IMG/VR virus record: IMGVR_UViG_3300034110_000988
Source of the DNA: an uncultured virus (IMG/VR IMGVR_UViG_3300034110_000988)
Taxonomy: Duplodnaviria > Heunggongvirae > Uroviricota > Caudoviricetes
Strand: one strand, 5' to 3'
DNA: 64,000 nucleotides
Below the pieces are notes generated by a model that worked only from the letters and a program-made list of their open reading frames with translations, made no database searches and was not told where the DNA came from. The translations under genes and the position numbers were made by a program. Shown here one piece after another: positions 161-63,519 of this stretch; position 1 is the stretch's first letter, and every line of letters starts with the position of its first letter.

Positions 161-238
161 CTATGTGTAGCTCAGTTTGGTTAGAGCATCTGCTGCTGAA
201 GCGGAAGGACATTGGTTCAAATCCAGTCGCATAGGCCA
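161..238 (+). tRNA. atypical tRNA, nominal anticodon CTG (Gln), G at position 33
   Basis: Acceptor CTATGTG/CGCATAG, D arm GCTC/GAGC, anticodon stem TCTGC/GCGGA with loop TGCTGAA, T arm ATTGG-TTCAAAT-CCAGT, G73-CCA. Confidence 0.75.
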
Positions 239-403
239 GTTTGTTGAAAAGAAGTGCTGTAATAGTGCCAGTGTGCTGATTTAGGTGGCGACGAGTTACT
301 AAGTTAGATGACATGGTTACAGTTAGGAAAGTCGCTATAACAAACATCCGAGAAAAGCTTTGTGGATTAAACTTCTCTAAGCAAAGATAAACTTTTCTCA
401 AAC

Positions 404-487
404 GCCCATGTGGTGGAATGGTAGACGCGGTGGATTCAAAATCCTCTGTCGAAAGACGTGTCGGTTCGAGTCCGACCTTGGGCACCA
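404..487 (+). tRNA. tRNA-Leu(CAA)
   Basis: Cloverleaf with long variable arm, loop TT-CAA-AA, GGTTCGAGTCC, ACCA end. Confidence 0.93.
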
Positions 488-2156: not shown

Positions 2157-3509
2157 ATGCTAAATATTGTTGCTGCGTTTATGGCGATTACGACCGCCAT
2201 TACCTACCTTAACTACAAATTTTTCAAACTACCCCATGCGATTGGCGTCATGTTTGGTGCTTTGTTGCTGAGTTTCAGTATTCAAGCAGCTACCTATTTT
2301 GGTTATCCTTTCATGCAGTATACTGCTATTGATATGATTTCCAAGATTGACTTCCATGAGCTGTTGATGGTGTGGATTCTTCCAGCATTGCTGTTTGCGG
2401 GTTGCTTGACTGTTAACGTCAGCGATTTGAAAACACACAAATGGGCCATTGCTGGTTTGGCTACGCTTGGGGTTGTCATTGCAACAGTAGTTATTGGATT
2501 CTGCACCTTCCAAGTCCTTAACTCTCTTGGATTGAAAGTAAGCTTGCTGTATTGCTTCTTGTTTGGTGCATTGATTAGCCCAACTGATCCTATTGCAGTC
2601 ATGGGAATTTTGAGAAATGCGGGTGCCCCAAAGAACTTGCGAGTAACCATTGTGGGTGAATCATTGTTCAATGACGGGACAGCCATCGTAGCGTTTGCCA
2701 TCTTGTTTGCTTTGGTAACATCGGGTGGCGAACCAACCTTGTCTCATGCTGGTATGTTGTTCTTGCAAGAAGCTGTTGGTGGTGTGTTCTTTGGTTTGGC
2801 TTTGGGTGGTGCTACCGTGCTGTTGCTCAAAACCATTGATGAAGCTCATATTGCAGTAATGGTGACGTTGGTGATGGTTATCGGTGGTGCGACATTGGCA
2901 AGTAAGTTGCACGTTTCTGCACCTTTGGCTATTGTGATTGCTGGCCTTTGCTTGGGTCATAAAGAATTCAACCACATGAATGAGCAAACTCACAAAGTGG
3001 TCAATAGCTTCTGGCATATTGTTGATGAATTCTTGAACGGTATGTTGTTTGCTCTTATCGGTCTTGAACTGTTGATTGTGAAGTTTGACCTGCTACATGT
3101 TGTGATTGCTGTAACGATGTTTGTAGTGTTGGTTCTTAGCCGTCTATTGACTGTTATTCCGCCACTGGCTCTTATGAAGAAACTTCGTAAAGACACTGGC
3201 TTTGGGCCGGGTAGTGCTGCAATCTTGGCTTGGGGTGGTCTGCGTGGTGGTGTGTCGATTGCACTGGTCTTGTCGCTACCTTCAAGCCCTGAGAAAGACA
3301 TTCTGTTGCCTCTGACTTACATCATTGTGTTGGGTTCCATCCTCATTCAAGGTTTGACTGTTGGTAAGCTGGTTAAAATCTTGTTTGACAAGGACAAAAA
3401 CAATGTGTTGGACGAGTATGAAAACAGTCATGGTCACGGTGAAGTAAATGCCAAGCCTGTTGTGGAAATTGTCCAGCCAGCAATTGAACACAAGATCGAT
3501 ACTCATTGA
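2157..3509 (+). CDS. nhaP: Na+/H+ antiporter, CPA1 family
   Basis: About 12 TM segments; FGALISPTDPIAV, GESLFNDG and WGGLRG motifs. Confidence 0.95.
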   Translation: MLNIVAAFMAITTAITYLNYKFFKLPHAIGVMFGALLLSFSIQAATYFGYPFMQYTAIDMISKIDFHELLMVWILPALLFAGCLTVNVSDLKTHKWAIAGLATLGVVIATVVIGFCTFQVLNSLGLKVSLLYCFLFGALISPTDPIAVMGILRNAGAPKNLRVTIVGESLFNDGTAIVAFAILFALVTSGGEPTLSHAGMLFLQEAVGGVFFGLALGGATVLLLKTIDEAHIAVMVTLVMVIGGATLASKLHVSAPLAIVIAGLCLGHKEFNHMNEQTHKVVNSFWHIVDEFLNGMLFALIGLELLIVKFDLLHVVIAVTMFVVLVLSRLLTVIPPLALMKKLRKDTGFGPGSAAILAWGGLRGGVSIALVLSLPSSPEKDILLPLTYIIVLGSILIQGLTVGKLVKILFDKDKNNVLDEYENSHGHGEVNAKPVVEIVQPAIEHKIDTH

Positions 3510-6519: not shown

Positions 6520-7236
6520 TTATTGTTTTTCTAAGCTTACATATGTGCCTACACGACGACCAATAGCAATAGATGATAGATTGCCTTTCCCCATTACATC
6601 GCACACCACAATAGGAATATTAAAGTCTTTACACATTGTAAATGCTGTCATGTCCATGACTTCTAAGTTCTGGTCGATGGCTTCTTTAAAAGTTAAGGTA
6701 TCGTATTTAACAGCGTCTGGGTATTTGTTGGGGTCTTTATCATAAATGCCGTCTACTTTCGTGGCTTTAATGATAATATCGCAGTTGAGTTCTTGTGCTT
6801 TCAGACTGGATGCTGTGTCGGTGGTAGAGAAAGGGTTCCCGGTACCGGCTGATAAAATGACAATACGTTTCTTACTGAGGTGTTTCATGGCTTTCAATCG
6901 TATGAAAGGTTCAGCAACTTGGTTTACCCCTATGGCTGTCATTACACGGTTTTCAATGCCTTTAGACTTCAAAACATCCTGCAGATACAATCCATTCATA
7001 ACAGTGGCTAACATACCCATGTAATCAGCCGTGGCTGGATCAACGCCATGACCATTTAAACTTTTACCTCGACAGATGTTCCCGCCGCCGACCACAATAG
7101 CAATTTCTACACCCATTTTATGAATGCTGGCAATTTCGTTTACAATTGCATTGACCGCTTCTTTGCCATATCCAAATTTCTCATCTCCCATCAGGGATTC
7201 GCCGCTTAACTTTAACAAGATACGATTATATTTCAT
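6520..7236 (-). CDS. pyrH: UMP kinase
   Basis: RILLKLSGE, VVGGGN, ADYMGMLAT, GTGNPFSTTD, KATKVDGIYD.DP, VMDMTA. Confidence 0.97.
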   Translation of the reverse strand: MKYNRILLKLSGESLMGDEKFGYGKEAVNAIVNEIASIHKMGVEIAIVVGGGNICRGKSLNGHGVDPATADYMGMLATVMNGLYLQDVLKSKGIENRVMTAIGVNQVAEPFIRLKAMKHLSKKRIVILSAGTGNPFSTTDTASSLKAQELNCDIIIKATKVDGIYDKDPNKYPDAVKYDTLTFKEAIDQNLEVMDMTAFTMCKDFNIPIVVCDVMGKGNLSSIAIGRRVGTYVSLEKQ

Positions 7237-7386
7237 AAATTTTCCTCAGAATTGTTTTCGATATAATACATTGTTTGATGACTATCGTCAATTATAAATA
7301 AACACTTTTTTCAACCATTTTGATTGCTTCGTTTAGCGTTTTTTGGTATAATCCTATTCTTACTCATTATTGCATAGGTAGCTAAA

Positions 7387-7833
7387 ATGGCTCTCAGCAT
7401 TGAACAAACGAAAGTATTGATTACACTGGTCGATAACAGTTTCACTTGTATTGCAAATGAACGTAAGCGTCTTTGTTCCCTTCTTGATAATGACTATTAT
7501 AATGAGTCTATAAACAAAAAAGATACACTTCAATTCATTAATGATAGTTCTAATAAGAAAATGTTGGCATGCCTTACTTTCAATGAATTGGCTGCTGTTC
7601 TTCCAGTGGATGAAGAATTTATTGATGGAATGCATTCAGACTCTTTTAATATTATCCTCGAATGTATTAATAAGAACATTAAACTGTTGCAAAAAGAACG
7701 TAACAGTGTTGATGACATTAAAACATTTGTTTCACCAGAAGTATTAAAAATTATCAAAAATTCTTTTGATAAAAAAGTAATCCAGTTAGAAGAAATAAAA
7801 AACAATATGAATTCAATGTTCAGTTATTTATAA
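7387..7833 (+). CDS. hypothetical protein
   Basis: ORF after TGGTATAAT promoter. Confidence 0.7.
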   Translation: MALSIEQTKVLITLVDNSFTCIANERKRLCSLLDNDYYNESINKKDTLQFINDSSNKKMLACLTFNELAAVLPVDEEFIDGMHSDSFNIILECINKNIKLLQKERNSVDDIKTFVSPEVLKIIKNSFDKKVIQLEEIKNNMNSMFSYL

Positions 7834-7850
7834 TGAAAGGAGTTTGCCTC

Positions 7851-8198
7851 ATGAGTTATTTGGATCAGTTTAGCAGCAAGGTTAAATTCATTAATAACAA
7901 TGAAAACCAGAAACCTCACGCTTTTCATATTTTATCTAATGAATATGTGCGTATTACCGAAGATGTTCAACTACGCAAAAACACACTAAATCAGCAAGAT
8001 TATCAGAACTATTTTGCGGTTCATCAATTGTTTATTGAATTTATGGATTCTTTTATCATCAATGCTGCAACACCAATTATTAGATCGGCCTTGTCTGATT
8101 TTAAAAATTCGCTTGGTAACACTTACAAAAAAATCTATAAAGAATATGAACGCAAAAATAGTTTTTTCAGTGATCTTTCTGTTATTATTAACCGATAA
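7851..8198 (+). CDS. hypothetical protein
   Basis: AGGAG RBS. Confidence 0.65.
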   Translation: MSYLDQFSSKVKFINNNENQKPHAFHILSNEYVRITEDVQLRKNTLNQQDYQNYFAVHQLFIEFMDSFIINAATPIIRSALSDFKNSLGNTYKKIYKEYERKNSFFSDLSVIINR

Positions 8199-8221
8199 TT
8201 TTATCATTAGGAATTTTAATT

Positions 8222-8623
8222 ATGAACGTTCTTGAAAACATGCAAACACTTCATGCTAAGCTTGAAGAAATTAAACCGAATTTTGCTACCTATATTAAAA
8301 ACAAAGCTATCCCACTGGAAGAACGTTGGGCTGTCTTTTCTTTGGCTCCATCTAACTTAAAAGAACACGAAGAGTATGGGCCGGATTTTGACACTCTGCA
8401 TCCTGATTTCATTATGTGTGATGGCCCAGTTCATATGGAGCGTGGTCAAACCATGTCTACGATTGATCTTATTGAATCCATCGAAGAAAGTTTGAAGGAT
8501 CTTGAAGATAATTCTTATTGTGGACGAGAATGGGCTGAAAAATTGCTCAAAGTCGTTGATATTAATGCATTGAAAGAAGAAATCATGGAAAAGAACCTGA
8601 ACAGTTTTAATTATGATTGGTAA
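8222..8623 (+). CDS. hypothetical protein
   Basis: ORF; paralog at window start. Confidence 0.75.
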   Translation: MNVLENMQTLHAKLEEIKPNFATYIKNKAIPLEERWAVFSLAPSNLKEHEEYGPDFDTLHPDFIMCDGPVHMERGQTMSTIDLIESIEESLKDLEDNSYCGREWAEKLLKVVDINALKEEIMEKNLNSFNYDW

Positions 8624-8732
8624 TTTCTGTTTTATTTTTAATGATAGCCGTTTCTATTTTTGAATCGGTTTTTCTTGTTTTTGAATTGCCTATAGAGTAT
8701 AATCAACTTCTTTAAATGATTAGGATGCAACC

Positions 8733-9215
8733 ATGGAACTCATTGAAGATTTGACCGAAGAACAAATTATTGCTCAAGCCGAGATGAACTCCCGGCCAGA
8801 TGATGCTCCTTATTATTACATGTACAGCATTCTTCGCACTGACATTCATATGCTTGAAGGCAAAATGCTCTCGCAGTCTGGTCATGCCTTCACCGATTCT
8901 TTGTTAGCTGCACAGAAAAAGAAACCCGAAGTGTGTGATCAGTATCGTGCATGGTGTAACGAACACCGGGACGCCTTCAATGGTGGTGCTAAGGTCAACA
9001 TGAAAGCCAAAAACAGTTCTCAACTGGTGAAGGCATATAATATTGCTCGAAAGGCTGGTATTCCTTGTGCGATTGTTGTTGATCGTGATCATATCCATCC
9101 GCCACACTTCAATGGTCAATTGATTATTACTGCTCTTGGTCTTGGGCCTTGTACTCAGGAAGAAGCTTATCAAATTACGAAACGATTCACTTGTATTCAG
9201 GATAAGTTGAAATAA
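8733..9215 (+). CDS. pth2: peptidyl-tRNA hydrolase, Pth2 family
   Basis: ILRTDI.M..GKM.SQ.GHA, AKV.MK, IVVD, TALGLGP motifs. Confidence 0.88.
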   Translation: MELIEDLTEEQIIAQAEMNSRPDDAPYYYMYSILRTDIHMLEGKMLSQSGHAFTDSLLAAQKKKPEVCDQYRAWCNEHRDAFNGGAKVNMKAKNSSQLVKAYNIARKAGIPCAIVVDRDHIHPPHFNGQLIITALGLGPCTQEEAYQITKRFTCIQDKLK

Positions 9216-9268
9216 ATTTATTCTTGATTTTTTGTTAATAACTGTTATTATTCAATTGTTGTCATAAT

Positions 9269-9376
9269 GGGAAACCTCTTCGGCCCTTATAACATTGCAT
9301 CGAAAACCGAGTCAGGACCGGAAGGTAGCAGCTCTATTGGTGTCAATGTGTGTAAGTCAGTTTGAAGAGGTTTTCC
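9269..9376 (+). ncRNA. ffs: bacterial small SRP RNA (4.5S)
   Basis: Helix-8 motif TCAGG-ACC-GGAA-GGT-AGCAGC within a long hairpin closed by a 15-bp stem GGGAAACCTCTTCGG/TTGAAGAGGTTTTCC, followed by a T tract. Confidence 0.92.
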
Positions 9377-9466
9377 TTTTTTATTATATTTTTTTATCTT
9401 TATGTCTTGTAAAAAATATGAGTCTTTATATAATGTAAGTATAAGGGTTGACTGTCTCAGCTTCTT

Positions 9467-9772
9467 ATGACCTCTCTAATGGAGTATATGGATATGACGA
9501 CATACAAAGAAGGCTCGCTTTACACATTATCAGTTGACTATTATCATAAAATTACACTGCATTGCACCTACATTGCTGATGGTTTTGTTTATTTCATTGA
9601 TAACAACAAAGACATCAACTACAAAAAAAATCTCAAAACTAAAAAACTCTATATCTTCAACACTCAATATCAAAGTTGGGATACGCTTGAAGACACCATT
9701 AAGCCTCTGGCTGATAATGAATCGGTTGAACGACCACTACCACCTAACAAATTTCAGTTTCGCGGCGATTAA
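9467..9772 (+). CDS. hypothetical protein
   Basis: ORF with GGAG RBS; true start probably slightly downstream. Confidence 0.65.
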   Translation: MTSLMEYMDMTTYKEGSLYTLSVDYYHKITLHCTYIADGFVYFIDNNKDINYKKNLKTKKLYIFNTQYQSWDTLEDTIKPLADNESVERPLPPNKFQFRGD

Positions 9773-9836
9773 CGATAGTTTTTAGTTGTTGACTATGGTA
9801 TAATTAGAAATCTATCAATTGGGAATAGGTTTTGAT

Positions 9837-10925
9837 ATGTTTTATAAATTTCTTACTTTTGTCAAGATATTTTTATACAGCGAAGCCTCTTTTTTTATCA
9901 AAAAAAATACGGCCAACATCTATTTTGTCAAAGCTAAAAATGGCATGAACGCTGAAATTAATATTACTGACCGAACTATGTTTGTTAAAGCATGGTCTGA
10001 TGTAGATTATGTTGCTTTTTATTATTGCACACCTATGCAATCATCAGAGCAATCATTTGATCAGTTTGTGATTGATAATATTAAAAGTTCCATTGTGTTT
10101 ACTTTACCAACTAAACAATTGAACTCGTATGTTGGCATGCACAGTCAGTTCTTTGCACGTTTTAGTACGTCTAGGTTTCCTGTTCTTTTTTTAGGCGGAA
10201 ATATTTCGTCTAAAAACTTAAAAGATGATGAATACACTTATGATTTTAATAAATTAGATGGTGTGCGTTATCCTATTGTTTATTTCACAAAGAAAAAAGT
10301 TATAAAGAATGTTTTTCGATACAATTTGAAGGCTATTAGAAAGAGTGATAAATCAAGAGTACAAAAACTCGCTTATACTGTTGATAACAGTTTGTTTCAT
10401 CTGGCGGATATAGATTCTTTTTATTCCAGCAAAACAACCTCGACTGGTGATCCCAGATTGAACTCTTGGCTGATGAATTTTAATACTAGTGATTTTTATA
10501 AATCATCTGCTAAAACTATTGGCTTGGATAATCAGCTTTTTGAACACAATAAAATAGTGTCTAAACATTTAAATCTTGAAAAAGTGTTGTTGATTAAAAC
10601 AGAAAATAAAGAATTCTGTTTTTTTGAAAAAAATAAAAGACAATTAGTGTTAAGTTATATCACTCAGGATGAAGAAAAAAAGAACATCTTAACCACATAT
10701 ACTTATAATAAAGGGAAAGTTAAGAAAAAAAATAAAAGAACCATTTCAGATGAAGTTAAAAATCATGAACTATCCATTAGTAATATGGTTATGGATAATA
10801 TTGAAACTTTAAAGCTTAAAAACCCCTCTGATACTATTATTCAACTTTTACATACATTGGATATTTCTACAACATTGCCACTTAATCAAGATGATTTACT
10901 CGTATTGGATATGCATAATATATAA
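9837..10925 (+). CDS. hypothetical protein, MxxI C-terminal family
   Basis: Long ORF ending DDLLVLDMHNI. Confidence 0.75.
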   Translation: MFYKFLTFVKIFLYSEASFFIKKNTANIYFVKAKNGMNAEINITDRTMFVKAWSDVDYVAFYYCTPMQSSEQSFDQFVIDNIKSSIVFTLPTKQLNSYVGMHSQFFARFSTSRFPVLFLGGNISSKNLKDDEYTYDFNKLDGVRYPIVYFTKKKVIKNVFRYNLKAIRKSDKSRVQKLAYTVDNSLFHLADIDSFYSSKTTSTGDPRLNSWLMNFNTSDFYKSSAKTIGLDNQLFEHNKIVSKHLNLEKVLLIKTENKEFCFFEKNKRQLVLSYITQDEEKKNILTTYTYNKGKVKKKNKRTISDEVKNHELSISNMVMDNIETLKLKNPSDTIIQLLHTLDISTTLPLNQDDLLVLDMHNI

Positions 10926-10998
10926 TTAGCCAATATTTTGACAATGATTAGTTGATAGTGTTATAATATTAAATATAAAAACAATAATTAATTTCATC

Positions 10999-11652
10999 AT
11001 GAATACAAAAAAAATAATACTTTCAGCAGTGATAACTGCACTTTTTTCTGGTCAATCTATTGCGGCTTATCAAGTTCAATTTGGCAAACAACAAATCAAT
11101 GGTGACAATATTAACTTTGTTAACTCCGGTAAATGGATTCCAGCAGATCCTCTCATGAGTTCATGGACTAATATTGGCACATTAAAAGATTGCACAAATT
11201 GGACGCCTGATCCATCGACTGTTGACACTGGCGTTGTTTTTACACAAAATGCGACAGATTGTAGACAAGACCAAAACAGAACGGTTCAAAACAGAGAGCA
11301 GAATGACATTACACTTAAATTTCGTAATGTTGGTGTAGCCACTGTAGAGAATCAAACAATAGCTAACCAATCAAACAATCGTCCTGCTACTGGCACTAAA
11401 CTTCTTGAAGAGTGTTCATATGTGTATGGAAACACTAATACCATGTCAGCTTGGATTGACAATGATCAAACCAGAGCAATTGATATCTGGTGGAAAGGCT
11501 CTAGAATAATTTCAACGACACCTTCTTCGATTGTGACAACATACACAATAGGTGGCTTTAAATATCAAAGAACAGGTAGTTATATAGACAGGAGCCTTAG
11601 AAACTCAGATAGTTGGTATCGTTACTACAAAATATGTCGTTCACCTAGTTAA
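10999..11652 (+). CDS. secreted Cys/Trp/Thr-rich protein
   Basis: Sec signal peptide (SIA/AY); CTNWTPDPSTV..G..FTQ...C.Q.Q.RTVQ.REQ segment. Confidence 0.75.
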   Translation: MNTKKIILSAVITALFSGQSIAAYQVQFGKQQINGDNINFVNSGKWIPADPLMSSWTNIGTLKDCTNWTPDPSTVDTGVVFTQNATDCRQDQNRTVQNREQNDITLKFRNVGVATVENQTIANQSNNRPATGTKLLEECSYVYGNTNTMSAWIDNDQTRAIDIWWKGSRIISTTPSSIVTTYTIGGFKYQRTGSYIDRSLRNSDSWYRYYKICRSPS

Positions 11653-11655
11653 TAT

Positions 11656-11895
11656 ATGCAAACAATAGAGATCTTTCTAGGTCTTCTTGATGGTAAATTA
11701 ACCAAAAATACTGAACGATTTGACCTTGATATGGTGACTAAACATGAAATGGATATCAGTAATCAAGTGATGACTAATGCTGATTATTTGAAAACTCATT
11801 ATCCATCTGATTTTATTGTTAACCGGCTGAATGAATTTGGTATCTGTTCAGATATTCCACTTAGTCTGGATGATTTGGCGATGTGTGAAATATGA
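11656..11895 (+). CDS. stand-alone copy of the C-terminal domain of 9837..10925, possibly a remnant
   Basis: HEMDISNQVM..PSD.I...L...I...PL..DDL aligns to the C-terminus of 9837..10925. Confidence 0.6.
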   Translation: MQTIEIFLGLLDGKLTKNTERFDLDMVTKHEMDISNQVMTNADYLKTHYPSDFIVNRLNEFGICSDIPLSLDDLAMCEI

Positions 11896-11982
11896 CCACC
11901 TTCTGGTGGTTTTTTCATTGTTATTATTCTCTCCATGTGATAGAATACATTTCTTGAAACCTACCTTGTAATGAGGCATTCC

Positions 11983-12399
11983 ATGATCCGTTTAGCTTCA
12001 GAAGATGACTTAATCGACATTAAACGCATTGCGAATCAAAATCGAGAATTTATCGGCTTTGTCATGAAAGTGGCATTGATGGAAGCTATTCAAAAAAAAT
12101 CATTGCTGGTTTTTGAAAATTCCACTGGTGTGGTTGGTTTTGTTCATTATCATCCACGCAAAGATGGTTGGCATACCGTTCATGAGTTGGCAATTTCAAA
12201 GGGCATACAAGGCCAAGGTATTGGTCAGCAATTATTTGATAGTGTTCCATTGCCAATTCGTTTAAAAACAACCGAAGACAATACAAATGCCTTAAAATTC
12301 TACGCTAAGAATGGTATGACCATTGTCGGTATAGAAAACGGAAAAAAGAGAAAATTAACTGTTTTGGAGAAAACTAGTGGAACAAATCAAAAAGAGTGA
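11983..12399 (+). CDS. GNAT family N-acetyltransferase
   Basis: IRLA..DDL, ELAISK..QGQGIGQQL, N..ALKFY.K.G. Confidence 0.9.
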   Translation: MIRLASEDDLIDIKRIANQNREFIGFVMKVALMEAIQKKSLLVFENSTGVVGFVHYHPRKDGWHTVHELAISKGIQGQGIGQQLFDSVPLPIRLKTTEDNTNALKFYAKNGMTIVGIENGKKRKLTVLEKTSGTNQKE

Positions 12400-14998: not shown

Positions 14999-15075
14999 GT
15001 CTGCGTAGCTCAGTTGGATAGAGCATCCGCCTTCTAAGCGGATGGTCGCTGGTTCGAATCCAGCCGTAGACGCCA
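14999..15075 (+). tRNA. tRNA-Arg(TCT)
   Basis: GTCTGCG/CGTAGAC acceptor, TCCGC-CTTCTAA-GCGGA, GCCA end. Confidence 0.96.
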
Positions 15076-15092
15076 GCTTTTGTGACATCCAC

Positions 15093-15177
15093 GCCCGAGT
15101 GGTGAAATTGGTAGACGCGGGGGACTTAAAATCCCCTTCCTTACGGAGTGCCGGTTCGAGTCCGGCCTCGGGCACCA
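15093..15177 (+). tRNA. tRNA-Leu(TAA)
   Basis: GGGGA-CTTAAAA-TCCCC, long variable arm, ACCA end. Confidence 0.96.
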
Positions 15178-15211
15178 GATTAACTTTTTGTATTGTTCTT
15201 TGGAGAATTAG

Positions 15212-15535
15212 ATGAGTTCTTTGTATAAGTTTGAAAACAAAGTGGTTGATAAAACCAATAAAGATGAACTTCGTAGTTATTTGGCTAATGCAAAAAAAGA
15301 ATTGTTGAAAGTTCGTTCCTCATGTGGTTTCGATGAATCGGTTAAAATTATTGAAGATCGTTCGCTGACCAAAGTTTCTCTTGTTGGTAGCCACTTTTCG
15401 CTGGCTGTTCGCCACGGTGAACATGCTTATAAGACTACTATCAAGCTGTTTAATAACGGGAGTCTTGTTCAAGAAATTAGTCTTGCTAACCTCTACAATC
15501 CAAAGCTTATTGAGCAATTGAAGGCTTTGGCGTAA
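15212..15535 (+). CDS. hypothetical protein
   Basis: GGAG RBS. Confidence 0.7.
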   Translation: MSSLYKFENKVVDKTNKDELRSYLANAKKELLKVRSSCGFDESVKIIEDRSLTKVSLVGSHFSLAVRHGEHAYKTTIKLFNNGSLVQEISLANLYNPKLIEQLKALA

Positions 15536-15640
15536 GAACTGTTTTAAAGTTCTTGATTTGTTGAAAAGAGATGCTGTTATGTTCCTCAAGCGGTGGTAGA
15601 AGTGCTGACGATTATTCTGCTACACAACAAAATAAACTAT

Positions 15641-15725
15641 GCCCGGTTGGTGAAATCGGTAGACACAGAAGACTTAAAATCTTCCGACGCAAGTCGTGCC
15701 AGTTCGAGTCTGGCACCGGGCACCA
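15641..15725 (+). tRNA. tRNA-Leu(TAA), second divergent copy
   Basis: GAAGA-CTTAAAA-TCTTC, long variable arm, ACCA end. Confidence 0.95.
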
Positions 15726-21563: not shown

Positions 21564-21637
21564 GCGGAATTGGCATAGTGGCTGTGCTCCAGCCTTCCAA
21601 GCTGGCTACACGAGTTCGATCCTCGTATTCCGCTCCA
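21564..21637 (+). tRNA. tRNA-Gly(TCC)
   Basis: GCGGAAT/ATTCCGC, CCAGC-CTTCCAA-GCTGG, TCCA end. Confidence 0.95.
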
Positions 21638-42220: not shown

Positions 42221-42874
42221 ATGAAAAAAATTAAAACGTTGTTCGTGATTGACCGTAACACCGATATGGCTACCGATGTGCTGACTGCTGGTGCAGAGTG
42301 GGTTATTCGTGGCGAAGGTAAAGCAACCATCAAGTTTGACGGTTCTTCTGCCTACTTTGCTGAGGGTAAGTTGTTCAAACGCTTTGACCGTAAATTGAAG
42401 TCTAACTTCTCTAAGATGGCTCGTAGCATGGGCGACAAGTTTGTGCCAGAAGATCACATGTTTAACGAAGTTCCAGAAGGTGCTATTCCTTGCGAAGCGG
42501 CTCCTGCAGCTCACAGTCTTCACTTCCCACACTGGGTTCCAGTTGGTGACGGCCCAGAAGACAAGTTCCATCGTGAAGCTCTGGAAAATGCGGGTGATCT
42601 TAAAGATGGTGCAACTTATGAGTTGGTTGGCCCAAAAGTTAATGGTAATCCATACAAACTGGAACGCCATGAGTTGTGGGAACATGGAAGTGTTGATTTT
42701 GAAGTGACTGACTTTACCTTTGAAGGGCTTAAAAAACTCTTTGCTGAGAAGTTGGTTAATGAGGAAGGCTTGGTGTTCCATCACCCAGACGGACGCATGA
42801 TTAAACTCAGAAACAAAGACTTTTCGTTTGCAACTTTCGGTAAATTTGACGAACGTAGTAAAAAGAAAAAATGA
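42221..42874 (+). CDS. ATP-dependent RNA ligase-like protein (DUF5565 type)
   Basis: KFDG motif I, TYELVGPKVNGNP, EGLVFH, MIKLR. Confidence 0.85.
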   Translation: MKKIKTLFVIDRNTDMATDVLTAGAEWVIRGEGKATIKFDGSSAYFAEGKLFKRFDRKLKSNFSKMARSMGDKFVPEDHMFNEVPEGAIPCEAAPAAHSLHFPHWVPVGDGPEDKFHREALENAGDLKDGATYELVGPKVNGNPYKLERHELWEHGSVDFEVTDFTFEGLKKLFAEKLVNEEGLVFHHPDGRMIKLRNKDFSFATFGKFDERSKKKK

Positions 42875-55917: not shown

Positions 55918-57762
55918 ATGAATTTGAAAGAAAGTTTACGAACTATTGAGAAAGCTACCAGTCGTGTTGTCGATACAGGTTGGGAGACTTTATATGGAGA
56001 TCGTTTAAATTATAATGAAATGTATTTTATACCTCATTTAAAAAACAATAAAGCTAATAGAAAAATGGCTCAGGTGCCTCTACTATCGGATACGATTACT
56101 AAATTATCCGACTGTGTTGAAACTATCAAAAACACTGATATTCATTCATTCAGTACAGTTGCTGAAATCAATCTCTATGGTTCCCACGTATACCCTTCTG
56201 AGATGGATAAACAGAACATCACTAAACGGACATTGCTCGACTATGAATCAAATAAAGCATGGCTTGATTTTTATTCTGCTGAAATGAGTGGATCTCGTGC
56301 ATTTGATGAAGATCTGTCAGATTACCTTGAAGATCAAGTTATCGCTATTAATCGTATAGCTGAACAACTGGAAAAGCAACATGTTAATATTAATAAGTTT
56401 TTAATGTTTAACTACACCGTGACTAATCAGTTGTCTATTTCATTGCAACATGAAGAAGATAGAGCTTACGTTGCTGAATCCGCTATCAACTACATTACCA
56501 ACAATCTTCCAGACATCGAAGCTTTTAAATCCTTATATGCAGACTATGTGGCTGCTAATGATAAGTTTTTAACCGATGTTAAAGCGGAACTCGTTAAAAT
56601 CAATCCAGACACCTTTGTTACGAATGCTGACTTGTTTATATCAACCTTGGCGAAGAACAGTGGTACTAATGCTGTCGAAGGATTCTTGATTGAAAAAATG
56701 TTGACAGACGACTCTGTTATTACTTCTGTTGATTTTACTGCAGGACAAGCTATTAATAAGGCCATTCTTTTTGATGATGCGAGTATTGCTTATAAACAAG
56801 ATGGTCAATACCATACATTCAAAGACAACCAAAGTCTTGATAATTTCATGTATACGCTAAACCATAGTGCTCTTTCTTACATATTAAGAAAAAAGCCAAC
56901 CACTATTCCTTTTTTCAAAGAAAAATTAATAGAAGACAAAAATTACAATAACGCCATTAGTGCAGCTACATCGTTTATTGATAATTACACTGTTTTGAAA
57001 CAATATAACTATGATCTCAATTCTTTCAAAGATAAAAGTTTTGAAGCCATTGATGATGAAATTAACCATGTTGTTGACAAGAACAAAATTAAACAATATG
57101 CATTTAGTATTCTTAGTTCTAAAAATAAACACTTATTTAATGATGAAACAGAGCCTTATTTCAAAGCATTGTTTGACAACAATGTAACGACATCACAACT
57201 CCAAACGTTTGTAGGCAAAAAACTGGCAGCTCTACATTCTAACGGAGACGTTATTACGATGTTGAACGGTATTCGTAACCATTTCGATGGATTTACTCAG
57301 GAAGCTCTAACGTTGAAATTAGAAGCTTTTGCTATTGAAAAATTACATGACCAAGACAATGTGGTTACTTTTGCTGTTGCTAATTACGTTCAATGTGAAG
57401 CGTTAGGATCAACATCTTGGTGTATTGTTCGAGATCAAGAATACTACGATCAGTATGTTACTGACCATCGTAATATCCAGTATATGATGTATGACTTCAA
57501 CAAACCATCCACTGACATCAATTCTATGATTGGCTTCACTGTAGACCGTTCTGGGGCTATTTATGCTGAACACTTGAAAAATGATGATGCTATTCATTCA
57601 TATAGCAAAGATGAACAATTGACGCATATACAAACCAATACTATTTATCAAAACAGAAAGAACCATAAATTATCAGAAGAAACCCTATTTGCAATGGAAG
57701 AAACTCTGGGCATTCAGGATGTTGTCAAAAACACTAAACCTTTAAAAATGAGAAATATATGA
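55918..57762 (+). CDS. large hypothetical protein A (G.TSWCI domain), copy 1
   Basis: Paralog of 60284..62116; LGSTSWCIVRD..Y..QY, MIGFTV. Confidence 0.85.
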   Translation: MNLKESLRTIEKATSRVVDTGWETLYGDRLNYNEMYFIPHLKNNKANRKMAQVPLLSDTITKLSDCVETIKNTDIHSFSTVAEINLYGSHVYPSEMDKQNITKRTLLDYESNKAWLDFYSAEMSGSRAFDEDLSDYLEDQVIAINRIAEQLEKQHVNINKFLMFNYTVTNQLSISLQHEEDRAYVAESAINYITNNLPDIEAFKSLYADYVAANDKFLTDVKAELVKINPDTFVTNADLFISTLAKNSGTNAVEGFLIEKMLTDDSVITSVDFTAGQAINKAILFDDASIAYKQDGQYHTFKDNQSLDNFMYTLNHSALSYILRKKPTTIPFFKEKLIEDKNYNNAISAATSFIDNYTVLKQYNYDLNSFKDKSFEAIDDEINHVVDKNKIKQYAFSILSSKNKHLFNDETEPYFKALFDNNVTTSQLQTFVGKKLAALHSNGDVITMLNGIRNHFDGFTQEALTLKLEAFAIEKLHDQDNVVTFAVANYVQCEALGSTSWCIVRDQEYYDQYVTDHRNIQYMMYDFNKPSTDINSMIGFTVDRSGAIYAEHLKNDDAIHSYSKDEQLTHIQTNTIYQNRKNHKLSEETLFAMEETLGIQDVVKNTKPLKMRNI

Positions 57763-59195
57763 AAAAAGCGACTGCAGAAGATTTTTTAACTTTACTTGAT
57801 GATTTCAAATTATCCAATAATATCACGGATACTAACTTTGACTATTATGCAACCTTGAAATTTTGTAGGTCTACATTTTTGAATGATTTTTATGATATTT
57901 CTCTTGTGAAAACAGACTCTCAACAATATCCTATTTTATTGCAAATGAATGGTAAAGCACTTGTTTTTAAAATGAAAGATGCTAATTTTGCTGGTATTTC
58001 TGAGGATGAAATCAAGAATGTTGTGCCTTTTTTGACAAAAAAAGACTATTCTCATGTCAGTCATCTAAACACTATATTAAAAGAGAGCACATCGTTTAAA
58101 TCGTTTGTTGATAATATTAATACTGTATTTGGTGAAGGGTTTGATTTACATGATTTAAGTGGTGTTTCGAAAAATATCATGGCTTTTAATATTGCTGATA
58201 CACTTAATACATTAGTGAAAAAATTAAAAGATGTAGATGTAAAAGATTATGATATCAAATATTCATTACAAATATTAGAAGATGACTTATCTTCGGATAT
58301 ATTTATTGGACGTGGGATTGACGTATCACAAATGTCACATGATTTTAAGCGTTATGTTTCGCCTAACCAAAGTGGCTATTCAGGTGATACAGAAACTTAT
58401 TATGATAGCTTAATGGAAAAATATTATAAACACTTAGATCAGTATTTTGATTTGTTTAAATTTCAGCAGACGTTAAAAACAGGAATTATGCTTAATTCAA
58501 CAACTGATGAAAAACTATTAGACACACCATTATTAAATGAGTTTATTACCATTGTTAAAGCTAACCAACCAACTTGGTTTCAGTCGTTTGATGAATCAAT
58601 GGTTCACTCAAGGACCGATGATAACGCTATTAGAGCCGCTGGCACACCTTTGATTGATAAGAGTGCTGACTTTGATTTGATTAATTCTATATTGTGTCGA
58701 GCAAGTGTTTATCCATCCACTATAGATGGATACACTAATGTTTCAGAAATTTTTATGAAAGAAGATACTAACTCAGTTCATTTGTATGGAGATAATGTAT
58801 TCTTTAAACCTTATTACCATAACCTTATTATCAAGGAAAAAGAAAATCTAAATATTTGCACTTATATTCATTCTGAAATGGGCTTGTCTTTAAGTGATGA
58901 TATGAAATTCAGCTTCCTTTTACCTGTATTGGATTATTTAGAAAAAAATAAAATAATTCTTGATTTAGCTGATAGTAATGATTATTACTTAACTTTCTTG
59001 AATTATATAAAGAAGGAAGATCTATCAGCACTTATAAAAGAAAAATACCCTAATCTTATCTTTTTAAACTTTGATAAAGACCTTAAAAAATCTATTGAGA
59101 TTAGTCATGCAACGTCTTTTAAGGATGCATTGAAAATCTATAAGCAAGATGAGAAACCAACGCCTAAAACGACTAAATTAAAAAACGCCTTGTAA
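57759..59195 (+). CDS. hypothetical protein B, copy 1
   Basis: ATGA overlap with A; paralog of 62113..63519. Confidence 0.85.
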   Translation: MKKATAEDFLTLLDDFKLSNNITDTNFDYYATLKFCRSTFLNDFYDISLVKTDSQQYPILLQMNGKALVFKMKDANFAGISEDEIKNVVPFLTKKDYSHVSHLNTILKESTSFKSFVDNINTVFGEGFDLHDLSGVSKNIMAFNIADTLNTLVKKLKDVDVKDYDIKYSLQILEDDLSSDIFIGRGIDVSQMSHDFKRYVSPNQSGYSGDTETYYDSLMEKYYKHLDQYFDLFKFQQTLKTGIMLNSTTDEKLLDTPLLNEFITIVKANQPTWFQSFDESMVHSRTDDNAIRAAGTPLIDKSADFDLINSILCRASVYPSTIDGYTNVSEIFMKEDTNSVHLYGDNVFFKPYYHNLIIKEKENLNICTYIHSEMGLSLSDDMKFSFLLPVLDYLEKNKIILDLADSNDYYLTFLNYIKKEDLSALIKEKYPNLIFLNFDKDLKKSIEISHATSFKDALKIYKQDEKPTPKTTKLKNAL

Positions 59196-60283: not shown

Positions 60284-62116
60284 ATGAATTTAAAAGACGG
60301 TTTAAGAAGTATTGAATCATTAAACAACATTGTTCACTATGAATCACTACATGGCGAAAATGATGTCCGTTTGAATTATAATGAAATGACCTTTATTCCT
60401 TATCTCAGTAAGAATAAAGGAAACAAATATATTAGAAATAAAAATGCTCTTAAAGATGCTGTTGAAACACTGGCTGGTTTCGTTTCTATTATTGAAGAAA
60501 CCGATTTGAATACATTGACGACCATACCAGATGTCGTTAAATTTTCAGCTCGTTTTTCAAGAGGCTTGTTTGATTCTGATGGCATTTCTGCACACACCAA
60601 AACACAAGCAGAATTTAATGGTGCATGGATAGACTTTTATGCGTATGGCATTAAAACTGACACTAAAAATCCACGTATTATTAATAAAATTGAAGACCAA
60701 CGTGAAGAAATCAATCATATTGGTCAAGAATTAGATAAAAAATACAAAGAGCTTAGTAACTTTCTTTTATTCCACTACACATTACTTCAACAACTACCAA
60801 AGTCTTTGTTACATGAAGAAGATCGTGCTTATGTGGTGAAGAGTATCAACACCTACACAGAACAAATGCCAGACATTAATAACATTCGTTTATTACAACA
60901 AAAATATCAAGACTTAAATAATCAGTTTCTGGTTGATATTAAACAACACATTGTTGATATTGCCCCTGACACCTTTATATCAAAAGCAGACGCTTTCATC
61001 TCGAAGGAACATGAACACCAAACTAACAATACTGTTGAAAACTTCTTGAATGCTAAGATGTTGTCAGAAGATGTGAAAGTTGCTCTTGAATTCACTGCAG
61101 CTCAAAAAATTCAAAAAGTCTTTTTATTTGATGATAAGAGCATCGCCTATAAAAGAAACAACGAGTATCATACGATTAAGGATTCGAACGCTATATCTCT
61201 GTTTATTAATGAACTTCACCATGACAGTCTATCTTTTATTCTTAGAAAAAAACCAACGACGATTGCGTTCTTTCAAAATAAATTAAAAGAAGATGGCGGT
61301 TACTCAAATGCCATTAAAGCCGCGAGTTCTTTTGTTGAGCATTCACAAGTATTAAAACAATATAACTTTGATTTAAATACCTTAAAAGACAAAGGATTTG
61401 AAGCGATTGATGACACTATCAACAACTTGGTTTACAAAAATAAAGTTAAACAGTTTGCATTCAGTATTTTGAGTGCTAAATATAAACACCATTTCAACAC
61501 TGAAACTGAACCTTATTTCAAAGACCTCTTTGACAATAATGTGACGACTTCTCAATTACAGACGTTTGTCGGCAAAAAGATTGCTGCTTTGAAATCAAAC
61601 GAAGATGTTATCAAGATGATCAATGGTATGTTGGATCACTTCAATGGATTTACACAAGAAGCTTTGACTGAAAAACTTCAATCTTTGGGGATTGAGAAGA
61701 TACATGACGCTAATAACGCTGTCAGTTTCGAAGTGTCTACCTATGAACAATGTAAGGCATTAGGTACCACATCTTGGTGTATTGTGCGTGATGAAGACTA
61801 TTTCAACCAGTATGTGCATGATAGAGGCAATCGCCAGTATATTATTTATGACTTCAATAAATTATCGACAGACATTGAATCCATGATTGGTTTCACCGTT
61901 GAAGACAATGGCGACATCTATGCTGAACACTGGAAAAATGATGATTCGATTAGTCGTTATAATAAAGCAGATATGTTGACTCACATTCAAACTAATACTA
62001 TTTATAATAACCAATCACGTCATTCTTTATCAGAAGGAACGATTGTTGATATGGAAGACATTCTTAATATAAAAGATGTCAAAAAGAATAAACCTTTAAA
62101 AATGAGAGTGGCATGA
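60284..62116 (+). CDS. large hypothetical protein A, copy 2
   Basis: Paralog of 55918..57762. Confidence 0.85.
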   Translation: MNLKDGLRSIESLNNIVHYESLHGENDVRLNYNEMTFIPYLSKNKGNKYIRNKNALKDAVETLAGFVSIIEETDLNTLTTIPDVVKFSARFSRGLFDSDGISAHTKTQAEFNGAWIDFYAYGIKTDTKNPRIINKIEDQREEINHIGQELDKKYKELSNFLLFHYTLLQQLPKSLLHEEDRAYVVKSINTYTEQMPDINNIRLLQQKYQDLNNQFLVDIKQHIVDIAPDTFISKADAFISKEHEHQTNNTVENFLNAKMLSEDVKVALEFTAAQKIQKVFLFDDKSIAYKRNNEYHTIKDSNAISLFINELHHDSLSFILRKKPTTIAFFQNKLKEDGGYSNAIKAASSFVEHSQVLKQYNFDLNTLKDKGFEAIDDTINNLVYKNKVKQFAFSILSAKYKHHFNTETEPYFKDLFDNNVTTSQLQTFVGKKIAALKSNEDVIKMINGMLDHFNGFTQEALTEKLQSLGIEKIHDANNAVSFEVSTYEQCKALGTTSWCIVRDEDYFNQYVHDRGNRQYIIYDFNKLSTDIESMIGFTVEDNGDIYAEHWKNDDSISRYNKADMLTHIQTNTIYNNQSRHSLSEGTIVDMEDILNIKDVKKNKPLKMRVA

Positions 62117-63519
62117 AGAAAGCAACCAGTAAAGAGTTCTTAGACTTATTAAACGATTTTAAAATAAAAAATAATATTGAAGGTAATACGTTTGATTATT
62201 ATGCAACGTTTAAATTTTATAAATCGACATTTTTGAATGGGTTTTATGATATGTCGTTGGTCAAAACTGATCATATTGAACACCCGGTCATGATTAAACA
62301 CTCAACGTCTAGTTTACTTGAATTGGGGGATGAAAGGTTCACAACATTAGGTGCTAACAATATAGACTATATACCTGTACTAAAAGATGAATATGTTGAC
62401 CATATAAAATACATGTTTAATGCTTTACAAAATAGTAACAGTTTTAAAAGTTTTGTTAATGCCGCTATTGCTGATACCCATAATGTTCATTCTAGTTTCA
62501 TTTCGAATAAAGACAACATTTATCCTCATCCTGATTTCAGAAATGAAAAAACAATTAAAATGGTAGATGCTTTTTTAGGGTTAAAGAATGCTGTAGAAGA
62601 GGAATTGAAACGAGAAAAAAGTAATGAAACTGGACTTCTTTACTATCTTGACAATTTAATTGAAAAAATGCCCCGTGATAGTCTAAGAAAGTATCAAATT
62701 GTCAGTGTTTTTAGAGGCCGCGAAACCAATGATCCAGATATTGTTATGGACAAACTTTATGAACAATTTGAGCCTCATTTTCAATTATTTAAAATTGAAA
62801 AAATGTTGAACTATGGTCGATTGCTGAATGCAATCACTGAAAAAGCTACGATTGATACACCATTGCTTAACCATTTTATTGAAACAATAAAAGAAGCCCA
62901 CCCAGAATGGTTTGTGACTTTTGATGAATCGTTAACTCATTGCATAACTGACGACAACGCTATTAGGGCTGCTGGCATACCTTTGGTTGATATGACGGCT
63001 GATTTTGATTTGATTGACCCCAAATCGTTTATGGCGACCGCCTATCCTAGCTATACTGATGGGTTTTCTCATATCTCTAACCGTTTTAAAGATGCTGAAA
63101 CAAACTTTGTTCATTTGTATGGTGATAATGTCTTTTTTAAGGCTTATTATCACAACCTTCATATCGAACAAGACAATGGCCTTACTTACTGTAAAAGTGT
63201 GGATTCGGATGTGGCGTTCTGTTTAAAAGATTCCAACAGAAAAGATTTCATTACACCTGTTTTAGATTACTTAGATAAAAACGAAATCGTTCTTAATCTT
63301 TCAAGAGACAGCACACTTTATCATCACATTAAAAAAGATGATTTAGCAGTATTAGTGAAAAGCGAATACCCTAATCTTGTTTTTATTAATGATGAACTTG
63401 GTTACAAGAAGTTAGGGGCTATTTTTGAGGCTAAAACTTATAAGGAAGCTCTTTCTATTTATCAAGGGACTGATGAGCAAGCGGTTGCTAAAAGAATAAA
63501 AAATAAAGCTGGTCTTTAA
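62113..63519 (+). CDS. hypothetical protein B, copy 2
   Basis: ATGA overlap; TDDNAIRAAG and VHLYGDNVFFK shared with copy 1. Confidence 0.85.
   Translation: MKKATSKEFLDLLNDFKIKNNIEGNTFDYYATFKFYKSTFLNGFYDMSLVKTDHIEHPVMIKHSTSSLLELGDERFTTLGANNIDYIPVLKDEYVDHIKYMFNALQNSNSFKSFVNAAIADTHNVHSSFISNKDNIYPHPDFRNEKTIKMVDAFLGLKNAVEEELKREKSNETGLLYYLDNLIEKMPRDSLRKYQIVSVFRGRETNDPDIVMDKLYEQFEPHFQLFKIEKMLNYGRLLNAITEKATIDTPLLNHFIETIKEAHPEWFVTFDESLTHCITDDNAIRAAGIPLVDMTADFDLIDPKSFMATAYPSYTDGFSHISNRFKDAETNFVHLYGDNVFFKAYYHNLHIEQDNGLTYCKSVDSDVAFCLKDSNRKDFITPVLDYLDKNEIVLNLSRDSTLYHHIKKDDLAVLVKSEYPNLVFINDELGYKKLGAIFEAKTYKEALSIYQGTDEQAVAKRIKNKAGL

Follow-up and report, generated by a model that had tools for sequence, protein, structure and literature searches.

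A full-length 4.5S-type SRP RNA gene in giant phage-like DNA

The signal recognition particle (SRP) RNA is generally viewed as the product of one essential gene in the chromosome. The E. coli version, 4.5S RNA from ffs, acts on FtsY through its tetraloop and a distal site. The window, by which we mean the whole 64,000-nt stretch of uncultured-virus DNA analyzed here (IMG/VR record IMGVR_UViG_3300034110_000988), holds a gene whose RNA shares with E. coli 4.5S RNA a single rod of ~100–114 nt, the GGAA tetraloop, and the GUCAGG/AGCAGC loops of helix 8. Unlike the E. coli gene, it lies among ORFans, tRNAs, and phage-type genes rather than in a housekeeping context, its lineage shows neither ffh nor ftsY in the DNA examined, and its flanks are plastic. 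Outside the core, the RNA resembles none of the at least 120 cellular SRP RNAs listed.

Three described or recurrent situations on mobile DNA offer further comparisons. Huge phages carry tRNAs, tmRNA, aminoacyl-tRNA synthetases, and release factors (Al-Shayeb et al. 2020, PMC7162821, as far as its text was available); in that available text tmRNA is mentioned, and SRP, 4.5S, and Ffh have zero occurrences each. The window resembles this kit in placing a stable RNA of the translation apparatus beside tRNA arrays, and its relatives carry aminoacyl-tRNA synthetases, GatA/GatB, and TilS, but an SRP RNA serves membrane targeting rather than decoding or ribosome rescue. The attB site of phiEf11 lies in ffs, a known integration target (PMC12540744, available portion), which likewise ties the SRP RNA gene to mobile DNA and accounts for SRP RNAs or their fragments on small viral contigs; the window gene, in contrast, is complete, internal to the element, free of a duplicated fragment, and subject to compensatory evolution. 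Helix-8 miniatures on large viral contigs present the same conserved Ffh-binding motif beside tRNAs, yet these are hairpins of 44–59 nt, whereas the window RNA extends to a complete rod of 108 nt that includes distal elements. No report of a phage-carried SRP RNA gene was found in the literature covered, namely main texts and abstracts outside subscription journals. The terms signal recognition, SRP, 4.5S, and Ffh are absent from the available text of PMC13282480, PMC7824862, and 10.1101/2024.12.16.628780, as are signal recognition, SRP, and 4.5S from that of 10.1101/2025.01.14.633092. As far as these searches reach, the SRP RNA family is known and its carriage by huge phage-like genomes is undescribed.

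Relatives of the window were found by a motif scan of IMG/VR and a 37-nt lineage-specific scan of metagenome contigs, which together gave five lineage copies of the RNA: the window itself, L070 (the same copy as in the IMG/VR record G001), L071, L072, and L073. The gene and its immediate surroundings are laid out as follows.

8733..9215, + strand: pth2 (peptidyl-tRNA hydrolase 2), directly upstream of the SRP RNA (PF01981, E 1e-16; phrog_1866, E 1.9e-19)
9224..9251, + strand: sigma-70-like promoter-like site from a consensus scan, TTGATT-16-TATTAT with an upstream TG; putative function
9269..9376, + strand: SRP (4.5S-type) RNA gene, a 108-nt rod identified by RF00169, fold, and covariation
9302..9338, + strand: invariant helix-8 core (asymmetric loop, GUCAGG, GGAA tetraloop, AGCAGC), the expected Ffh-binding site
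9377..9395, + strand: T-rich tract after the terminal stem, read with the closing stem as a putative intrinsic terminator
9467..9772, + strand: small ORF of ~93–101 aa that adjoins the SRP RNA in the window, G001, and L073, with no Pfam or PHROG family

An earlier note, made from the letters alone, had described a textbook helix 8 in a 108-nt rod and proposed comparison with the Rfam Bacteria_small_SRP model. That comparison bears the description out: positions 9276–9371 on the + strand match RF00169 at 58.6 bits (E 2.6e-10, Rfam cmscan), above the family's gathering score of 40 bits and over the full model (positions 1–97 of 97). The interval 9269–9376 folds into a single rod with a minimum free energy of −42.8 kcal/mol and a z-score of −5.0, which none of 200 shuffles equaled. 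Read directly, the apical sequence is CAGG-ACC-GGAA-GGU-AGCA, as described, and the rod closes with 5′ GGGAAACCUCUUC paired with 3′ GAAGAGGUUUUCC, followed immediately by the T run. The GGAA tetraloop and the GUCAGG...AGCAGC loops align with conserved RF00169 consensus positions. The window RNA is a genuine member of the bacterial small SRP RNA (4.5S-type) family.

The promoter-like site and the T tract that the earlier note had pointed out are both present, but the former is weak by itself and only suggestive, because the consensus scan has a high background (seven sites in the region, where chance would give 4.9). The counterpart in G001 is readable as TTGCAT-16-TATTAT and keeps the −35/−10 arrangement of the window. 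A T run lies 3′ of the stem in all five lineage copies; the terminator scan reported no site, the rod's stem loop being beyond its limits, and the stem and T run were read directly. Contigs from RNA libraries X22 and X23 that align to window positions 8200–11700 cover parts of a relative's neighboring genes and not 9269–9376; such contigs cannot show transcription.

The pairing of the SRP RNA with pth2, also claimed from the sequence, holds in the window and in its closest relative L071 but not throughout the lineage: the G001 homolog of pth2, 75.7% identical in amino acids, lies ~16 kb from the G001 SRP RNA. On the other side, the small downstream ORF aligns together with the SRP RNA in G001 (66% amino-acid identity), and in L071 an inserted gene parts the two. 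This insert is a 255-aa ORF at 2137–2904 on the opposite strand. We considered the small ORF as a possible SRP partner protein and dropped it: it belongs to no family, shows no Met-rich M-domain character, and is separated from the RNA in L071. Upstream of it, window positions 9407–9434 hold a promoter-like site (TTGTAA-16-TATAAT) that is kept nearly base for base in G001, while the spacer around it is not. The flanks of the SRP RNA are altogether plastic and not conserved between the window and G001, and neither of the two contains a second, partial SRP RNA copy.

All five lineage copies score between 57.6 and 62.4 bits against RF00169. The window and G001 RNAs differ at 10 of 108 nt, and none of these differences breaks a pair: nine fall in six pairs (three compensatory double changes and three wobble-compatible single changes) and one is unpaired. 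Across the five copies and 41 pairs, 99% of the 204 pair cells are standard pairs, and 10 of the 41 pairs show compensatory double changes, compared with 3.2 ± 1.3 in shuffles, none of 500 of which reaches 10; sliding the partners as a control yields 0–5 double-change pairs. The 37-nt helix-8 core is identical in every copy, and a distal stretch that includes the 3′-side bulge is likewise invariant, while the stems in between vary by compensation. These compensatory changes and the invariant 37-nt core indicate that the RNA is under purifying selection. It is 90.7% identical between the window and G001, whose shared genes are 68–84% identical in DNA and whose proteins have a median identity of 44% (54 of 99 ORFs). 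The conserved distal stretch would fit a full SRP cycle.

Searches for the origin of the RNA gave no near source. Nucleotide searches with window positions 8000–12000 and 9250–9400 returned no match among GenBank phages, and none of 185,579 species genomes contains the lineage 37-mer. Many phyla have the helix-8 variant with AACC, which turns up at no fewer than 120 cellular loci. Among the at least 120 cellular SRP RNAs listed, no close donor was found, the best flank identity being 0.64. The two best flank matches (L185 and L271) were set aside as donors since they are ordinary cellular SRP RNAs.

The surrounding DNA consists of ~106 non-overlapping ORFs, mostly on the + strand, and a Pfam family (E ≤ 1e-3) was assigned to 15 of the 88 ORFs scanned. 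Features that bear on the setting of the RNA are given here; the tRNAs, six in all, rest on ARAGORN and Rfam.

161..487, + strand: tRNA-Gln(CUG) and tRNA-Leu(CAA)
2157..3509, + strand: Na+/H+ exchanger with 12 TM-like segments (PF00999, E 5.8e-62), a likely SRP client
14999..15725, + strand: tRNA-Arg(UCU) and two tRNA-Leu(UAA)
21564..21637, + strand: tRNA-Gly(UCC)
42221..42874, + strand: phage-type RNA ligase (phrog_14301, E 7.8e-46; tblastn matches in 25 phage records)

In addition to the ligase, phage-type genes in the window include pth2 (phrog_1866), an SLT lysin, and a phrog_17356 protein whose homologs occur only in jumbo phages of the CBB/GAP32/RaK2 kind; a search for loci related to this homolog gave no close relative. 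Shine-Dalgarno (SD) motifs precede 48–50% of ORFs against 6.5% of control ATGs, with a peak at −13 to −10, and this canonical spacing led us to reject a eukaryotic giant virus. Stop-codon recoding was also rejected as the source of the short ORFs, as TGA-, TAG-, and TAA-sense readings brought no specific gain. A duplicated two-gene cassette (~610 and 470 aa) stands at 55918–59195 and 60284–63519 of the window, occurring twice in G001 and once in the more distant relative G004. Its 614-aa protein has no family, an AlphaFold model with pLDDT 71 and pTM 0.48, and no fold match in the PDB (best E 0.1); its atlas matches, all below 0.9, merely lead to viral hypothetical proteins.

The phage-like cassettes reported from the sequence are real, comprising ORFans, SD-led ORFs, redundant tRNAs, and RNA-repair genes, and no ffh was found, as had been reported: neither Ffh nor FtsY families occur among the 88 window ORFs scanned or among the 81 ORFs scanned in G004, and the SRP_SPB and SRP54 GTPase domains are missing from all three of the records searched (G001–G003), with 14 of 14 controls detected. 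The statement that the window encodes many membrane and secreted proteins has modest support in its membrane part: a crude hydropathy count puts one or more TM-like segments in 21 of 92 ORFs.

The relatives extend this picture. G001 (290 kb) has 35 tRNAs, including 10 Leu(UAA), 6 Met, 4 Arg(UCU), and 2 with a CUA anticodon (L018–L032), as well as Rnl1, TnpB, and a WHH nuclease, and a Pfam family could be assigned to only ~24 of its 150 largest ORFs. G004 (437 kb), in which 14 of 99 window ORFs find a match, has 26 tRNAs, one of them CUA (L151–L172). The CUA anticodon is of the amber-suppressor type, but ORF lengths show no TAG recoding. G004 encodes DnaK, LigA, TyrRS, TrpRS, SerRS, a further class II synthetase, GatA/GatB, TilS, polynucleotide kinase (PNK), and RNA ligases, alongside the phage/conjugative-element domains ART-PolyVal, PBECR5, and T5orf172. 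Its DnaK (L160:2807–4708) is 66–73% identical to DnaK of records that are or resemble gammaproteobacterial DNA, which is high for a phage gene. G004 also has many transporters (MFS, MscS, CDF, HlyD/OEP), a chemoreceptor, and seven paralogs of a DEDDh_C-domain protein. Co-oriented small ORFans, tRNA arrays with suppressors, and RNA-repair and translation genes, the accessory signature of huge phages, are all present, and the context of the SRP RNA is phage-like.

SRP RNAs also occur on phage DNA outside this lineage, as the survey of phages proposed in the earlier note brought out. G002, of 497 kb and 57.7% GC, encodes a large terminase, portal, DNA polymerase, helicases, and GroEL and has none of 99 window proteins in common; its single full small SRP RNA (RF00169, 57.7 bits, 349767–349859; L035, L053) sits in an island of 46 tRNAs, where it shares its strand with the flanking tRNA-Met and tRNA-Ile. 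G003, of 372 kb and with a TerL at E 1.1e-24, has one RF00169 match, again a full small SRP RNA at 57.7 bits. These two are independent bona fide huge phages that carry an SRP RNA. A looser motif scan gave 45 loci, and Rfam was run on 20 of them, namely the larger contigs and a selection of the smaller ones. RF00169 scores 42.1 bits on G009 (194 kb) and 40.7 bits on G010 (175 kb) and G013 (101 kb), the last two over model positions 24–66 only, with weaker miniatures on G011 (183 kb) and on G012, which spans 436 kb and has terminal repeats and a TerL (E 3.7e-21); the miniatures of G010, G011, G012, and G013 adjoin tRNAs. In all, helix-8-only elements of 44–59 nt stand beside tRNAs at five loci (L337, L322, L330, L308, and L311) on IMG/VR contigs of 101–436 kb. 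At L311 (417 kb), a GGAA-tipped helix-8 hairpin without an Rfam match follows a promoter-like site and precedes a tRNA.

Several small viral contigs bear full SRP RNAs near their ends, and an 18,403-bp IMG/VR contig (L003, L013) has two helix-8 motifs 14.3 kb apart, one in a full SRP RNA and the other without an Rfam match; the contig-end RNAs and this doublet most plausibly represent host flanks or islands in ffs. RF00169 was found in none of five large phage genomes, the cultured jumbo phages CBB, GAP32, RaK2, and XbC2 and the 642-kb LR756502. A 40-nt helix-8 query at E ≤ 10, which detects near-identical helix-8 variants only, returned 10 records. The entries filed as 'Acinetobacter phage MD-2021a' (L068, H41/H42) were discarded as bacterial contigs, which carry a cellular ffs besides fabZ, lpxA, recA, and dnaK. 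Vibrio phages VP585 and VHML (L066, L067) were discarded because they share only a 22-nt motif and have no Rfam SRP match at E ≤ 0.01, and Serratia 2050H1 likewise has no such match. The near-perfect 22-nt helix-8 match of VP585 and VHML lies in unannotated DNA beside parA.

The kind of replicon that carries the lineage RNA is less clear-cut than its phage-like context. The metagenome contigs of L070 and L071 measure 1,539,155 and 1,859,102 bp, and the lineage 37-mer occurs once on each. L070 is 100% identical to G001, and the IMG/VR 'provirus' G001 is therefore a slice of the 1,539,155-bp contig. L071 is 88–90% identical to the window and syntenic with it over window positions 6537–11688. The description of the RNA as encoded by a mobile element is in keeping with IMG/VR, which calls the lineage relatives viral or proviral, but sits less easily with the megabase contigs and with the lack of terminase, capsid, and portal genes in the lineage DNA examined. 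Six IMG/VR pieces belong to the lineage (G001, G004, and G014–G017; ~1.43 Mb), five of which are labeled provirus, i.e., cut from larger contigs, including all of G014–G017 (152–193 kb); the SRP RNA is missing from G004 and G014–G017. The terminase phrog_2 is absent from all six, which are partial records, and present in the true huge phages G002, G003, G005, G006, and G012. G001 has no Terminase_6N, and capsid, portal, and terminase PHROGs are absent among the 100 largest ORFs of G001 and the 70 largest of G004. Cellular hallmarks are missing as well: no ribosomal protein S2 was found in four lineage records, and across the window, G001, and G004, 791 kb together, every ORF is shorter than 800 aa, so RpoB, RpoC, and DnaE are not encoded there. 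The largest phage genome found in print is 841 kb (10.1101/2025.01.14.633092, available text), about half the size of the 1.54- and 1.86-Mb contigs. Two readings of the replicon stand: a phage-like element of megabase size, or a cell that harbors several giant virus-like regions, in which case the SRP RNA could be a copy in a prophage region or, with lower probability in view of its context, the native ffs.

We favor, with a probability of about 0.55, the reading that the window carries a functional, element-borne 4.5S-type SRP RNA in giant phage-like DNA without an SRP protein gene; its expression, Ffh binding, and benefit we infer. The RNA would be transcribed from its own sigma-70-like promoter, with termination expected at the T run after the rod's closing stem and a short 5′ leader possibly trimmed. 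The invariant helix 8 would bind the Ffh of the resident cell, and the GGAA tetraloop together with the sequence-conserved distal internal loop may let the complex run the normal FtsY receptor cycle. The SRP RNA would form part of a translation-support set, represented in the window by redundant tRNAs, pth2, and the RNA ligase, to which the relatives would add PNK, several aminoacyl-tRNA synthetases, GatA/GatB, TilS, and DnaK. The likely benefit would be that SRP capacity is kept or raised for the element's membrane proteins during a shutdown of host RNA synthesis. On function, the earlier note had suggested that the RNA may replace host SRP RNA destroyed by defense or toxin RNases, or titrate or reprogram Ffh. 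Counted against this reading are the failure to find a virion or packaging gene, the megabase contigs, the provirus cuts, the DnaK of G004, the absence of the SRP RNA from G004 and G014–G017, and the failure to find a donor among the cellular SRP RNAs listed.

Much of that same evidence feeds the view that the gene is the native housekeeping ffs of an unusual cell with a 1.5–1.9-Mb low-GC chromosome, large parts of which look virus-like to classifiers. With relatives on contigs of 1.54 and 1.86 Mb and no terminase, capsid, or portal found in the lineage DNA examined, this view keeps some weight, and the single 37-mer copy per contig, the origin of G001 as an identical slice of the first contig, the provirus cuts behind five of six IMG/VR pieces, and the cell-like genes of G004 (DnaK, LigA, aminoacyl-tRNA synthetases, GatA/GatB) lend it more. 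We nevertheless consider it unlikely. A cellular chromosome is hard to square with 791 kb free of ORFs of 800 aa or more, four records without S2, a G001 without Ffh or FtsY and with so few Pfam families among its largest ORFs, a redundant tRNA set skewed to Leu(UAA), Met, and Arg(UCU) with amber suppressors, SRP RNA flanks that differ between the window and G001, and no match in 185,579 species genomes. Less probable again is that the RNA acts as an anti-host decoy, soaking up Ffh or forming a defective SRP and so shutting down host membrane-protein biogenesis. Large phage contigs do keep helix 8 alone, in 44–59 nt beside tRNAs, which suggests that Ffh binding by itself can be a selected property, and the helix-8 core is the most conserved part of the window RNA. 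But the window copy is full length with its GGAA tetraloop intact and its distal internal-loop region invariant, its closing stems are kept by compensatory changes needless for a simple Ffh sponge, and the same DNA encodes multi-pass membrane proteins that need SRP.

A non-functional passenger, either a recently captured host ffs or an att-site remnant of an element that integrates into ffs, we regard as very improbable. The precedent of phiEf11 (PMC12540744, available portion), the 18.4-kb contig with helix-8 motifs 14.3 kb apart, which is consistent with an island in ffs, and the small viral contigs with SRP RNAs near their ends show where such passengers might be sought; the window gene, however, is complete from end to end, comes with a promoter-like site and a T run of its own, has no partial second copy in the window or G001, keeps its structure by compensation while proteins have drifted to a median identity of 44%, and has no close donor among the at least 120 cellular SRP RNAs listed. 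Beyond the favored reading of a functional element-borne RNA, a more far-reaching proposal can be framed, which we hold to be doubtful: the window would belong to a 1.5–1.9-Mb phage-like bacterial replicon with its own SRP RNA in a near-cellular translation and targeting kit, and SRP RNAs, full or helix-8 only, would constitute a recurrent kind of huge-phage gene, so far undescribed, by which host membrane-protein targeting is taken over or sustained.

A lineage that resides on contigs of 1.5–1.9 Mb, without hallmarks of a cell or a virion in the parts seen, points to a phage-like replicon of unprecedented size or else to a highly unusual cell, and either is worth resolving. The recurrence of SRP RNAs in unrelated huge phages and of helix-8 miniatures beside tRNAs makes it directly testable whether a phage SRP RNA loads onto host Ffh and whether it acts as a help or a hijacker. 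Virus-borne SRP RNAs would add co-translational membrane targeting to the host processes for which large phages equip themselves, otherwise with tRNAs, tmRNA, synthetases, and translation factors.
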